From IMG/VR virus record IMGVR_UViG_2534681979_000007: a stretch of 7,161 nt of DNA. One strand, 5' to 3'. Both the position numbers and the translations under genes were made by a program. The DNA comes from a virus (Duplodnaviria > Heunggongvirae > Uroviricota > Caudoviricetes). Of the stretch, positions 1 through 5,000 are shown one piece after another. Numbering within the stretch: the stretch's first letter is position 1; every line of letters begins with the position of its first letter. A model generated the notes under the pieces. That model did no database searches. It saw only the letters and a list, made by a program, of their open reading frames with translations, and was not told where the DNA came from.

Positions 1-174
1 AAAAAAAAGGGATCTAGCTATCTCTATCCCTGTGTGCTTGCAGTCTCAGTTTGAACATAATAAAACGTTGATCAGCGGAACTTTGATTACAGAGCCAAAG
101 TTGACGACCGTAATTATGCACTGAAGGAAAGGGAGTTTAACGCTAACCAGAATTACCGGAATGCGTCACTGGGT

Positions 175-1167
175 ATGGAGCAGCAGCGACTCCAGTTGCA
201 GAAATACAACCAGCGACGGCTTGAGTATAACGATATGATTGCCCATAGCCAGCCACTAATGGAAGCGCTTGGAAAAGCAATTGAGGCTGGCGATCAGGAG
301 GCTGCAACGCGTCTGTTCGGGCAGCTGCCAAAGGGACATCCATTAATTCTTATGTCAAACGAAGGCTATGCAGCGAAAGCGGGTCAGGCCGTGATCAACC
401 TGCAAAAAATCTTTGGTGATAAGCCGGACATGGCGATCGATTCGCTGAATACCCCGGAAAATCTCGATGTGCTTTCCGGCGTGTTTGCCCCGGAACTACA
501 ACAGCGTATTGGCATGCCTGATTCAACCGGGGAAAAAACGATAAAAGAGGCCAGGATTGGCAGTATCGTACCAGCGCAGCAGGAAGGGTACGTACTTATT
601 GGCCTTGATCTCACATACAGCGATGGCTCCACCGCGCATAAACCTGTAACAGAATACGGCAGTGCGCACCCTGATGATCAAACCGTGCTGGCGATACCCG
701 TTGATAAGGCTATCGCTCAGGTCAGGGATCGCAGCAAATTTGCAGAGATATCGAAAAATTATGGTTATTTTATGCCGAAGCAGCAGGGACTTTCTCTGAA
801 AGAGCTTCAGAAGGGGGCCAGCAACGTAGCGGCGGACGCGATCAAGAATGGCGGTAATGCTCAGGCTGCGGTGGATGAATATTATGCTGCGACTGGTTCA
901 CAACCGCATCAACAGAAAATTCAGCAACAAAAACTTCAGCAACAGGTTATCAACTGGGCGGGAGATGATCCTGATAAGCTGTCATTTGCCAGAAATGTAG
1001 CGGCCCGTCAGCCTGAAATGCTGGAACCTCAGAATCAGAAATTGCTGGAGAACGGGTATGCGAATTTTCTCCGTATTCAAAAGGCCAGGGGGGAACAGGC
1101 CAGAGATGAAAGTGCTTCATCTGCATCTCAGTTTATCCGTGGACTGAAACAGAATTACGCCCAGTAA
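175..1167 (+). CDS. Hypothetical protein, 330 aa, hydrophilic with a Gln-rich segment; first gene of a three-gene co-directional cluster
   Basis: Complete ORF in frame 1 from the six-frame track. Frame 1 has tandem stops at 58..63 and no ATG/GTG/TTG between 64 and 174, so ATG 175 is the first available start. The Shine-Dalgarno upstream of 175 is weak (ctgggt). The ORF ends at TAA 1165..1167 and is followed 34 nt later by a hairpin plus T-tract. No recognisable catalytic motif seen by eye. Confidence 0.7.
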   Translation: MEQQRLQLQKYNQRRLEYNDMIAHSQPLMEALGKAIEAGDQEAATRLFGQLPKGHPLILMSNEGYAAKAGQAVINLQKIFGDKPDMAIDSLNTPENLDVLSGVFAPELQQRIGMPDSTGEKTIKEARIGSIVPAQQEGYVLIGLDLTYSDGSTAHKPVTEYGSAHPDDQTVLAIPVDKAIAQVRDRSKFAEISKNYGYFMPKQQGLSLKELQKGASNVAADAIKNGGNAQAAVDEYYAATGSQPHQQKIQQQKLQQQVINWAGDDPDKLSFARNVAARQPEMLEPQNQKLLENGYANFLRIQKARGEQARDESASSASQFIRGLKQNYAQ

Positions 1168-1236: not shown

Positions 1237-1998
1237 ATGGCCTATTCAGAGGAACAGCGTCCTGAGGCGCAACTCGGTAACCAGAATCGTAACAGCCTGA
1301 ACATTCAGCAACCCGGCGAAACTGACAGCTATGAAGCATTTTTCTCTGATCCGAATCGCTGGAAGGATAACAGTACGTCGTTCAGCCTGGGCGATGTATT
1401 GCCAACAATGGGTAAAGGTTTCGCCCAGTCCGTCCGGGGAACAGGGGAAATGGCCCGTGGACTCGGTGATGCGATGATTCAGAGCCCGGTAAAAACAGGG
1501 GCGCGTATTTTAAATGAGTTTAGCCGTATGGGGCTGCCGGGTGTCGCAACTGTGCAGGATATTTTTGCCGGTGGCAGCAGGGGGGCTGATGAGGTCATCG
1601 ATACCCTGCCTGATGGCAAAAACGCGGTTACTGATACTGTCGGTAAAGGTCTGAAGGCAACCGGTAAGGCTGTCAGTGATGGTGCCAAAGCCACTGATGA
1701 ATGGCTGACCGGTAAGATGTCGCCGGGTGCAGTTCGTGCGCTGAATACGCCGATGACCGAAGGCTATAATGATTCTGCGGTCTGGGTGGCGAAGGGTGTA
1801 AACCTGATTGGTGCGCTTGTACCTGATATGGTTGCTGGCGGTGTGGCTAGAAAGGTGGGTGATGTCACACTGCGAAAAATGCTGACCGCCGGGCTGGAGA
1901 AAAAATACATCGCGGCAGGGATGCAGCCGGAAAGAGCCACGGCACTGGCAGCAGAAGCTGTCGATAAAAAATGCCGGATTTATTCCAGGCGGGCCTGA
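1237..1998 (+). CDS. Hypothetical Gly/Ala-rich protein, about 253 aa, with a hydrophobic segment near the C-terminal third (VWVAKGVNLIGALVPDMVAGGVA)
   Basis: Frame 1 ORF listed in the track as 1198..1998. The ATG at 1198 lies immediately before the terminator hairpin so that the hairpin and T-tract would be coding. The in-frame ATG at 1237 is preceded by GGAG (1228..1231) with a 5-nt spacer, so 1237 is the preferred start. Stop is TGA 1996..1998. Confidence 0.7.
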   Translation: MAYSEEQRPEAQLGNQNRNSLNIQQPGETDSYEAFFSDPNRWKDNSTSFSLGDVLPTMGKGFAQSVRGTGEMARGLGDAMIQSPVKTGARILNEFSRMGLPGVATVQDIFAGGSRGADEVIDTLPDGKNAVTDTVGKGLKATGKAVSDGAKATDEWLTGKMSPGAVRALNTPMTEGYNDSAVWVAKGVNLIGALVPDMVAGGVARKVGDVTLRKMLTAGLEKKYIAAGMQPERATALAAEAVDKKCRIYSRRA

Positions 1999-2036
1999 TC
2001 ACCCATTCCACTGTAAGTGCACAGGGGCAGAGTGCA

Positions 2037-5000
2037 ATGGCGGCAGCAGATGCTGTTCTTAATGCTGATTACTCTGAGCTGGCGCAGTCACCGAAATTTC
2101 AGCAGACGTTTTTGTCCATTGACGCCGACCCGCAGCACGCACAGCTTACTGATCGCCAGAAAATGGATCTGGCAAAAGAGCGTGTTGCCGATGAGGTGCG
2201 CGCGCAGCTGGCAACCGATCCTGAATTGCTGGCTGTGAATGCCATGGCGGCAAAACTGGGTGACGCACAACTGTTTAATCTGGTGACACGAGGCACAGCG
2301 AAGACCGTTAAAAGCGGCATTGTCAGAAATGCCACTGCACAGGGGGCGATTAATGCGGCGCAGGGCGGCTATTCACGCTATCAGGAAAACACGGCATTGC
2401 GTGAGACCGCCGGAATGGATGTATCGCCATGGGAGGGCGTGGCTGACGCAACGATCGAAGGTGCTGCCCTTGGTGCTGCGATGGGGGCTCCATTCGGTGC
2501 GGTTGCCGGATATCGTGGCAGACGTCAGGCCGCAGAAGAAACCGCCATGCGTGATGCTGAAACCGTGCAGCAGGACGACGCAGCCCCGCAACCAGAATCT
2601 GTTGATCCGGTGGCGCAGCAGCGTGAATCCATGCAGGGCATGAATCGCGAGCAGCTTCTGGAGCAGTATGCTGATGCGGATATGGCAACAGAGGGTGACG
2701 CATCCGCAGCTCATCGCCGGGAAGCTGCCAGCCAGTTGTTGAATGAACTGGACGAACAGACGAAGCGACAGGCTGTGATGAATGAGCTGAAGGCGAAGCC
2801 GCGTTCTGAACTGCTTGAGGAATACCGCAGACTCAGCCAGAAAGAGGGGCGCACCGAGACTGAAGAACAACAGTTTCAGGCAATACGAGAAGTCATTCGC
2901 CCACAACAGGAAGTGACGCCGGAAGCACAGTCACAGCCTGAAAATGCGGAGGATGGTAACGGGAGCATTTACCCGACGGTGCGGTTCCGGGACCCGAATG
3001 AAGTCCGCATTGAAATTAACGGGAATGGTGCGTCCAGACCAGCGGAACGCATTGAGAAGGTGCGCCCGGACAACCGTTATTTCACGGATGAGAAAAGCGC
3101 CATGGGGAGTGATGTTTTCCGTAATGCCGCCGCCACCGGCCTGAAACCGTCCGTAGTGAAGAAAGGCGAGAATCAGTATGCCGTTGAAATGGATAATCCT
3201 GCGTTCTCTGAAGATGTGGCAACGGAGACCATTAACACTCTGGCTGACGGAGAGCGTATTACTGATGCTGATCCGATGGAACAGCCCGCGTTCATGCGTG
3301 ACCCGCGATTCCGTGGTTTTACGGGGGATGATACAGAAGTGCAGGCCCGTCTTGCCCGTGGCAACGCGCCGACGGCGGAAGAACTGGTGCGTTCCCAGAT
3401 GGCTGAAGGTGATGCCGGTCCGACAGCACAGGAGTTAACTGAGCGTCCACGCCTTCCCGCTCCCGGCGATATTCATCCCGGACAGGGATATCCGTTACCA
3501 GGAGAAGTGGCGCGTACGCCGGATGAAAATCAGGCCGGACGTGGTGGTCGTTTTACCACAACCGGTGAGGTGAAGGGCCAGAGTTTCCAGAAAGGACGTG
3601 AGCAGGCACCGGAAAATGCCGCTGGTCGCCAGGGGGAAATACTGGAGGGCGAAACAGTTCGTCGTGGTCTGCCGTCACCGGATGAGCAGAACGCCACAGC
3701 ACCAGTGCGTGAAGGACTTCCTGCACCTGAAAGTCAGCGTGGGGTTGATATGCCACAGCCTGAATCACTCCCTCGTATGGTTCGTGACTCCCTTCCGGAA
3801 CTGGCACAGCAGGCAGAAGCACGCAGACAGACCGGGGATAATCGCCAGACCATAACCGATGTTCCGGATACTGAGGTGCCGGTGCCGGTAGATAAACCGA
3901 GCACTCACCAGCAGGTGCGTGGTGCGAAAATTGAAGACTTTGGCGAGGAGATTAAGGGCGCGGCAAAACACCGTTATGCGCAGCTTGCTGAAGCTATGGG
4001 TAAAACGCTGGAGGATGGGGAGTACGCGACACAACCACTGAGCAAACTGTTTCCAAAGCCGGATTATGCCCGTCTGGAAAAAGAAGGTGTGGATAGTGAC
4101 ACGCTGGCAATGATGGCGTTGTATCGCAGTGAAATTCCCACCAGAACAAGCCGTAACATGCAGAAATGGATCAGCATTGTTAAAAGCGGTCGCGAAGCTA
4201 CTGCCGGTATGCTGGAGGGGAAAATTCCGGCAGCGAAACTGGCTGATATGATGGACAGTAAGCCGGGGTTACGGAGCATGTCGGATACCTGGAAACTGCT
4301 CCGTACGCTTTCTGCATTGCAGATTGATAAAGCATCCGGCTATCGTGTCAGGTCCGGTGTTTATTCGTTTGTCGGGGGAAAACGTTACGATCCGCCGCAA
4401 ATGATGTATTCGCTTCGTGATAGCAAGGGGCGCGACCTCTTTTTCTCGGAAAGCCGGGATGAGTTACTGAAAAAGGCGAAAGCATATTTCGATGAACAAG
4501 GCTCCAGAGAAAGGGAAACGCCAGCAACCTCTGCTGATGACAGAATAACCTTTGACGTGTACCGGCATAAGGCCAGTGGCGACATTTTTATCGGTTATGG
4601 CAAAAACAGGCAGAAACTGAAGGGCGGTTTTGAGTCTGCCCGTGATGCACATGATTATGTGCGCACACATCGTGATGAGCTGGTTAATCAGGTGAAGGCG
4701 CTGCGTGAAGTCTCGCGTGAGGAGCAGCGTAACGCCACCAACCGCGATCGTACCGGACCAGAACGCCGCAAGGGGGATGTTTCGCCGGAGCAGTTCAGTG
4801 ATGCGTTTGGTTTTCGTGGTGTGCAGTTTGGTAATTATGTGGAAAGTCCGCGTCGTCAGGCTGATTTGAACCGGGCTTATGACTCGCTGCATGACCTGGC
4901 TGACGTGCTGAACGTGCCGACAAAAGCGCTTTCTCTGAACGGTCGTCTTGGGCTTGCTTTTGGTGCCCGTGGTAAGGGTAAGGCGGCGGCACACTATGAG

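Follow-up and report, generated by a model that had tools for sequence, protein, structure and literature searches.

In a 7,161-nucleotide (nt) stretch of virus DNA (IMG/VR record IMGVR_UViG_2534681979_000007), hereafter called the window and taken at its full length, a glycine zipper of five Gly residues at i+4 spacing over 17 residues (GxxxGxxxGxxxGxxxG) closes an all-helical N-terminal module of a giant polyvalent protein, and this module is, on profile comparison, homologous to part of the phage N4 virion RNA polymerase (vRNAP) N-terminal domain (NTD). As the best-conserved feature of a delivery module that giant virion-packaged phage proteins have in common with the N4 vRNAP, the zipper probably helps the injected protein to engage the inner membrane of the host. 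We infer, in addition, that the zipper itself would be the membrane-embedded, oligomerizing element. The fuller proposal, in which it is a membrane-engaging, self-associating helix and the functional core of the "delivery head" of an ejection protein packaged in the virion, is given about an even chance of being right. The protein family, its location in the virion and glycine-zipper membrane motifs in general are already known. Within the literature searched, a module of ~180 residues common to many polyvalent giants, its homology to part of the N4 vRNAP NTD, and the glycine zipper as its most constrained feature appear to be new.

Over almost its full length, the window is 80-97% identical to 186 phage records, all of them Shiga toxin (Stx)-converting or related short-tailed phages of E. 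coli and Shigella in the Sepvirinae (933W, VT2-Sakai/Sp5, phage 86, phi191), and by these matches it is part of a 933W-like Stx-converting podophage. Coordinates of its features are collected in Table 1.

The glycine zipper and its conservation

Translation of window positions 2460-2510 (+ strand) gives GAALGAAMGAPFGAVAG, followed by YRGRR, exactly as an earlier reading of the letters without database searches (the sequence-only reading) had claimed; positions 2460-2540 (+) read GAALGAAMGAPFGAVAGYRGRRQAAEE. In the giant open reading frame (ORF) of the window (1,708 codons), this is the only run of at least three Gly at i+4, and a run of five arises in 0.44% of 20,000 composition-preserving shuffles of the protein, which contains 10.5% Ala and 7.5% Gly. 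Upstream, Gly, Ala or Ser extend the register to nine i+4 positions covering 33 residues (126-158), and the segment displays, in extended form, the transmembrane (TM) glycine zipper pattern (G/A/S)xxxGxxxG in the sense of Kim et al. (2005). A 12-nt tandem DNA repeat was considered as the origin of the zipper and rejected, as none lies beneath the motif.

To follow conservation, residues 1-210 of the window ORF served as query in an exhaustive HMMER search (E ≤ 1e-3), the database being 1.84 billion cluster representatives. This search matched 116 representative proteins, almost all full-length ones being giants of 2,000-5,500 amino acids (aa), and in the full-length homologues the match to the module lies 150-290 residues from the N-terminus. 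Another homologue search, made with the single sequence and with the profile, returned only short fragments of close E. coli relatives, without domain architectures. Column frequencies were taken from an alignment of 90 sequences with 24-40% identity to the query, in the numbering of the window ORF. Gly occupies position 150 in 100% of these sequences, position 146 in 97%, 154 in 88%, 134 in 87%, 158 in 67% and 142 in 48%, and G150 is one of four invariant columns in the module. An alignment-free test on 89 long homologues (≤50% identity) gave a concordant picture: at least four Gly at i+4 occur within the expected 110-residue segment in 82% of the homologues, against 0.27% of 1,876 background segments from the same proteins, and at least three in 98% against 2.9%. 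At short range, the zippers of close Stx phages (GGTLGAAMGAPFGAVAG, GAAFGAAMGAPSGAVAG and GAALGAAMGAPFGAAAG) are changed at non-Gly positions only. Since close variants differ only at these positions and homologues keep Gly at i+4, selection acts on the glycine register itself and not on the sequence.

The residues between and around the glycines are constrained as well. Family-wide, the zipper stretch carries no charge and has a median length of 19 residues, 42% of them Gly, the repeating four-residue unit being G-[GA]-h-h. Positions other than Gly are filled by A/V/I/L/M/F/T, while D, E, K, R, N and Q together account for less than 2% of them, so the zipper helix would have no polar face. 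An acidic residue, usually Glu, typically precedes the uncharged run and Arg or Lys typically follows it, the median net charge of the ten residues after the run being +1; in the window, 18 uncharged residues lie between E and R. The lack of a polar face and the charged boundaries make the segment membrane-segment-like in its predicted properties. Past residue ~174, the alignment columns are mostly gaps, and the module is followed by a long, poorly conserved linker.

Two further observations concern the same region. At window positions 2328-2354 (ORF residues 98-106), the family consensus reads KGxxxEGxTEAxQGG, with Glu 102 and Glu 106 nearly invariant (79-84 of 90), and the Stx-phage lineage carries Gln and Asn in their place (RNATAQGAINAAQGG), two conserved acidic residues thus being lost. 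On the minus strand, the zipper region is overlapped by ORFs at 2350-2703 (117 aa) and 2373-2906 (177 aa), which most likely arise as by-products of a coding strand rich in Ala and Gly codons and were set aside because the plus frame is conserved as protein in homologues down to 24% identity.

A head in common with the N4 virion RNA polymerase

The sequence-only reading had proposed a comparison with the N-termini of known phage ejection proteins, and this comparison leads to the N4 vRNAP. Searched against the PDB, the module profile finds a single kind of solved match, the full-length N4 vRNAP gp50, at residues 305-446 (E 6e-4). At the same place, this profile matches the N-terminal regions of all 12 Schitoviridae vRNAPs tested and that of a "metallopeptidase" of Pantoea phage G19. 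In hhalign comparisons with N4, the module alone reaches 98.4% probability (E 5e-15), and the whole N-terminal region, represented by an 82-sequence alignment, 99.0% (E 2e-18), residues 251-429 of the intact protein corresponding to N4 288-448. Structure prediction points the same way. AlphaFold2 (AF2), run on a 39-sequence alignment, models the module as all-helical, with seven helices and a mean predicted local distance difference test (pLDDT) score of 78, and places the zipper inside the long final helix 135-175; a Foldseek search of this model against predicted viral structures (BFVD) retrieves podovirus entries named "RNA polymerase (fragment)" (E 4e-4 and 1.7e-3), with a Roseobacter phage vRNAP also among the fold matches. 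Upstream of the module, homology to N4 is not significant (best block 49-77 versus N4 113-141, E 0.08).

The relationship is confined to the head. A phmmer search of N4 gp50 against the 133 collected homologues gave one weak match and none to the polymerase region (N4 gp50 ~1008-2104), none of the 116 sequence matches contains the polymerase domain, and no RNA polymerase family appears in a Pfam scan of the giant protein of the window. The possibility that this protein is an N4-like vRNAP was therefore rejected: a polymerase domain is lacking, and only the N-terminal module is held in common. The link to N4 required profile-profile comparison because it is not visible at the level of single sequences. 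The Pantoea phage G19 protein (locus L003:8551-18861), which exceeds 3,400 aa, matches the module profile weakly, and its N-terminal region matches the N4 gp50 NTD (31% identity, E 2e-7); vRNAPs and polyvalent giants could be bridged by such a protein as an intermediate form.

Behind the same head, different proteins carry ddrB-ParB, methyltransferase, ResIII helicase, inorganic pyrophosphatase (InPase), GGDEF, ART-PolyVal, LPD39, LPD38 or MuF_C domains, and in Schitoviridae the same head precedes an RNA polymerase. A constant head with changing cargo is as expected for a delivery module. In the window, the predicted cargo makes the giant protein a phage-type polyvalent protein with multiple LPD and enzymatic domains, including a zincin-like metallopeptidase, a class defined by Iyer, Burroughs, Anand, de Souza and Aravind in 2017 (PMC5512222); relatives carry the annotation LPD5/LPD38 domain-containing protein. 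A sequence search of the whole intact giant protein against PDB sequences gave no match.

Two published sets of experiments deal with close relatives. In Sp5, both ORF80 (2,793 aa) and the upstream ORF79 are required for plaque formation and lysogenization: mutants in either have normal DNA packaging and head morphology, and the ORF80 deletion packages DNA and forms neither plaques nor lysogens (PMC5155283). In phi24B, proteomics shows the 2,811-aa gp47 to be abundant in purified virions, but the cryo-EM model lacks it, and the authors of that study propose an encapsidated ejection protein (bioRxiv 10.64898/2026.04.10.717836). ORF80 and gp47 belong to the same protein family as the giant protein of the window. 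The suggestion of the sequence-only reading that the zipper sits in a giant protein of a mobile element thus holds, the protein being polyvalent by Pfam, packaged in the virion and proposed to be ejected (bioRxiv 10.64898/2026.04.10.717836).

Proposed membrane engagement and alternative readings

In the mechanism favored here, the capsid would hold the giant protein (Sp5 ORF80/phi24B gp47 family) until infection, when it would be expelled by way of the short tail. Upon contact with the inner membrane of the host, the zipper helix would leave the helical module and embed in the bilayer, where its glycine face could self-associate or pair with a small glycine-zipper protein encoded two genes upstream. 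The protein would then be anchored at, or form part of, the inner-membrane end of a conduit for DNA or protein, with the variable cargo domains behind. Background on N4 is consistent with such a scheme: its NTD, unresolved in both 2026 cryo-EM studies, has been reported to incorporate into nanodiscs, is implicated in injection, and is proposed to make, together with gp51, the inner-membrane complex of the ejectosome (PMC13434306, PMC13492108).

Several results weigh against this proposal. Transmembrane prediction, the check named by the sequence-only reading, yields no translocon-type TM helix on classical scales: the Kyte-Doolittle mean of 1.19 (family median 1.07) is low for a TM helix, the Hessa apparent free energy sums to +7.5 kcal/mol and the Wimley-White octanol sum is +7.8 kcal/mol, so that a classical TM helix is not predicted because the Kyte-Doolittle and Hessa values are too weakly hydrophobic. 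In addition, the uncharged run is just 17-19 residues long, and the pLDDT falls from ~74 to 56 across the zipper helix in the AF2 model. A Foldseek search of the modeled module against the PDB gave nothing significant, its best hits (E 2.3) being membrane helices of the ExbB/TolQ/TIM23 type that were not used as evidence. In N4, membrane helices are predicted at residues 224-278, upstream of the zipper equivalent at 420-446 (PMC13434306). This equivalent has a degenerate register, GLGALYGFGSAG, with about three small residues in place, and for this reason the strict zipper is not universal in the wider superfamily; the predicted helices elsewhere and the degenerate register also make a membrane role less transferable from N4 to the zipper.

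Among the alternatives, the best placed is that the zipper is a soluble helix-packing or partner-docking motif that never enters the bilayer, which is possible, though on balance rather unlikely. Its partner would be a helix within the module or another ejection protein, such as the upstream protein of ~420 aa, by analogy with the N4 gp50 NTD and gp51. Hydrophobicity below TM thresholds, the AF2 placement of the zipper within an all-helical domain and the position of the predicted N4 membrane helices all fit this view, and the N4 literature proposes a direct association between the NTD and gp51 (PMC13434306). Against it stand the complete lack of a polar face, which is unusual for the terminal helix of a small soluble domain, and the sharp bounding of the uncharged run by Glu and Arg/Lys, which resembles that of a membrane segment. 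GxxxG motifs also pack helices in soluble proteins, a general point in favor of docking, whereas the best family matches of this segment are all membrane-embedded glycine zippers: PF13441 YMGG (19.0 bits), PF13436 OmpA (17.6) and PF13488 Omp (14.6). Membership in these Pfam families was itself rejected, the scores lying below the gathering thresholds of 28.9, 27 and 25, respectively.

It is improbable that the segment, as the end of the N-terminal domain, is instead a flexible Gly-rich hinge, allowing the giant protein to unfold and pass through the ~30 Å tail channel, or an autoprocessing site, cut by the protein's own zincin-like peptidase so that the head is freed from its cargo. The zipper does lie exactly at the border between the conserved module and the long, poorly conserved linker, its second half has low pLDDT, and it has been proposed that the metallopeptidase domains of polyvalent proteins carry out autoprocessing (PMC5512222). 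However, Gly content is all that a hinge requires, whereas the strict i+4 register and the hydrophobic residues at i+2 and i+3 are conserved here as well; moreover, the segment is predicted to be helical by AF2, and full-length N4 vRNAP is reported to be unprocessed (PMC13492108). Finally, a chance pattern without specific function in a protein rich in Ala and Gly has practically no probability left, being excluded by the shuffles, by a register kept in 82-98% of homologues against 0.3-3% of background segments, and by the invariant Gly.

More tentatively, and with the balance tipping toward doubt, N4-type vRNAPs and a large, diverse family of polyvalent giants might have in common one ancestral delivery head in which the zipper is the most constrained element, a general self-translocation device working with a small co-encoded zipper protein. 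Such a device would open the inner membrane or be anchored there, and would bring whatever cargo is attached (polymerase, nucleases, methylases, ART, peptidases) into the cytoplasm. The matter is of practical weight: Stx-converting phages spread Shiga toxin genes, and their essential protein of 2,800 aa had no assigned mechanism. The 2026 phi24B preprint explicitly poses the question of how the giant protein is organized and ejected, and the homology to N4, the cargo-variable family and the conserved zipper make this question testable by point mutation. Were the head a portable translocation module, the delivery of widely differing enzymes into cells by podophages would also be accounted for.

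At the other end of the giant protein of phage 86 (locus L001:13199-21550), beyond the end of the window, further long uncharged stretches occur, and they are confined to the LPD38 region at residues 2390-2543; one of them is Gly-rich and the second such stretch in the protein (AAGNVVGGVLGAFSPIGS). Because of this second stretch in the C-terminal LPD38 region, membrane-active segments at both ends are possible, and the giant protein may be membrane-active at both.

Gene structure, neighborhood and comparison with known systems

The intact giant gene of phage 86 (gp35; 8,352 nt, 2,783 aa) starts at a position equivalent to ~1237 of the window and sits 3' of tail-fiber and structural genes, in a late-gene neighborhood. 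In the window, a one-nt deletion in an A homopolymer (A6 for A7) splits this gene into an ORF at 1198-1998 and a second one that opens after the TAA at 1965-1967. The downstream frame 0 offers ATG 1971 (native Met246), which overlaps the upstream ORF (stop 1996-1998), or ATG 2037. The split is also seen in PHROG 616, of which profile positions 1-246 match the first ORF and 268-1974 the second. IMG/VR contains 30 exact matches to the A7 allele and none to the A6 allele, and on this ground the A6 copy is either a homopolymer sequencing or assembly error or a recent inactivating mutation (defective prophage). The placement of the zipper "near the N-terminus" by the sequence-only reading needs amending accordingly: the zipper lies ~150 residues in only because the frameshift makes the ORF start at 2037 (or ATG 1971), and what stands is that it falls within the first 15% of the native protein. 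Reinitiation or slippage on the A run could in principle yield some giant-protein product. The gene that is split here is the one essential for infectivity in Sp5.

Table 1. Features of the window (7,161 nt) and the basis on which each was assigned
Feature	Position	Strand	Basis or remark
Glycine zipper GAALGAAMGAPFGAVAG	2460..2510	+	ORF residues 142-158 from ATG 2037; 409-425 of intact 2,783-aa homologue
Acidic residue E141, conserved, just ahead of uncharged zipper stretch	2457..2459	+	Family alignment; acidic, usually E, in most listed homologues
Basic cluster YRGRR, immediately 3' of zipper	2511..2525	+	Translation; R/K at family positions 160 and 162
All-helical N-terminal module ending in zipper (~180 aa)	1986..2522	+	116 clusters; homologous to N4 gp50 (vRNAP) 288-448
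Giant polyvalent protein body, open at window end	2037..7161	+	Pfam
LPD5	4374-4805	+	Pfam, E 2.5e-43
LPD1 (zincin-like HExxH)	5286-5525	+	Pfam, E 4e-23
MuF_C	6453-6722	+	Pfam, E 8e-18
A6 homopolymer, A7 in phage 86 and relatives (1-nt deletion)	1966..1971	+	Comparison with relatives
Detached N-terminal part of giant gene (native start MAYSEEQ...)	1237..1998	+	Intact residues 1-246 and 9 out-of-frame codons
Upstream gene, 3' part (phage 86 gp34/Sp5 ORF79 homologue, 421 aa intact)	1..1167	+	PHROG 601

In phage 86, the giant gene is preceded by gp33 (83 aa) and gp34 (421 aa). The former (locus L001:11602-11853), annotated as a "bacteriocin" and mapping, in related genomes, a short way upstream of where the window starts, ends in ~35 residues that form an uncharged glycine zipper (Gly-zipper_YMGG, E 9e-6, sub-threshold). 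It matches g18 of Vibrio phage D171 (42% identity, E 4e-9), likewise encoded two genes upstream of a giant, and gp34 matches g20 of the same phage (E 1e-11), again a conserved upstream neighbor of the giant gene. Altogether, a six-gene cassette, gp30-gp35 of phage 86 (L001:9994-21550), is collinear with g15-g21 of Vibrio phage D171 (L045:2238-14411) at 22-42% identity, and this points to a functional unit that has been conserved around the giant protein. No similarity of gp34 to any solved ejection protein was found among PDB sequences. Proteomics of phi24B detected "a homolog of a bacteriocin" in virions, which was dismissed as a contaminant (bioRxiv 10.64898/2026.04.10.717836); it may be a genuine small ejection or membrane partner. 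The window's own upstream gene is partly divergent: the megablast match to relatives starts at position 40 (1-39 unmatched), and positions 175-480, in the first third (N-terminal side) of what is visible of the gp34/ORF79 homologue, differ from phage 86. This divergent patch (1-39, 175-480) suggests a mosaic junction inside the gene.

Compared with published descriptions of polyvalent proteins, phi24B gp47 and Sp5 ORF80, the giant protein of the window agrees in carrying LPD5, LPD1, MuF_C and, in relatives, LPD38, as well as in its late-gene neighborhood. Those papers cover the cargo domains and the ejection proposal, whereas the N-terminal module, the glycine zipper and the link to the N4 NTD are not mentioned in the searchable text of the Sp5, phi24B and Iyer papers. 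The Pfam Gly-zipper families (SlyB/Pcp-type lipoproteins) are alike in motif type and composition, but the match spans no more than about half of each model, the likeness stops at the level of the motif, and the phage protein has no lipoprotein context. Membrane glycine zippers of this kind were reportedly described in VacA and other proteins by Kim et al. in PNAS in 2005.

A functional precedent for the favored reading is the type VI secretion system (T6SS) effector Tde1, which needs its N-terminal GxxxG zipper to permeabilize membranes and to enter prey cells (PMC10240207). In both proteins, GxxxG repeats follow one another in an apolar stretch toward the front of a polypeptide that is, or is proposed to be, delivered; they differ in that there is no sequence homology between them and that one is delivered by a T6SS and the other would pass through a phage tail. 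The ejectosomes of podoviruses (T7 gp14/gp15/gp16, P22 gp7/gp20/gp16, N4 gp52/gp51/gp50) consist of internal virion proteins needed for infectivity and not for packaging. The N4 order gp52-gp51-gp50, with a small membrane-type, a mid-size and a giant protein, parallels gp33-gp34-gp35 of phage 86, and the same small, mid-size and giant order is found in gp14-gp15-gp16 of T7. Unlike classical ejection proteins, the Sp5 mutants are reported to lack tail-fiber antibody binding (PMC5155283).

The closest counterpart is the N4 gp50 NTD. The two proteins differ in cargo, since the Stx-phage protein and the other sequence matches have LPD5, LPD1, MuF_C, LPD38 and similar domains in place of an RNA polymerase, and in the zipper, which is strict in the Stx-phage protein and degenerate in N4. 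Nevertheless, both are giant proteins that T=9 podophages package in their virions, both have a helical module of ~160 residues about equally far from the N-terminus (N4 288-448 versus 251-429 in the Stx-phage protein), and in both this module ends in an uncharged Gly-rich stretch, followed by a long linker and then by the cargo.

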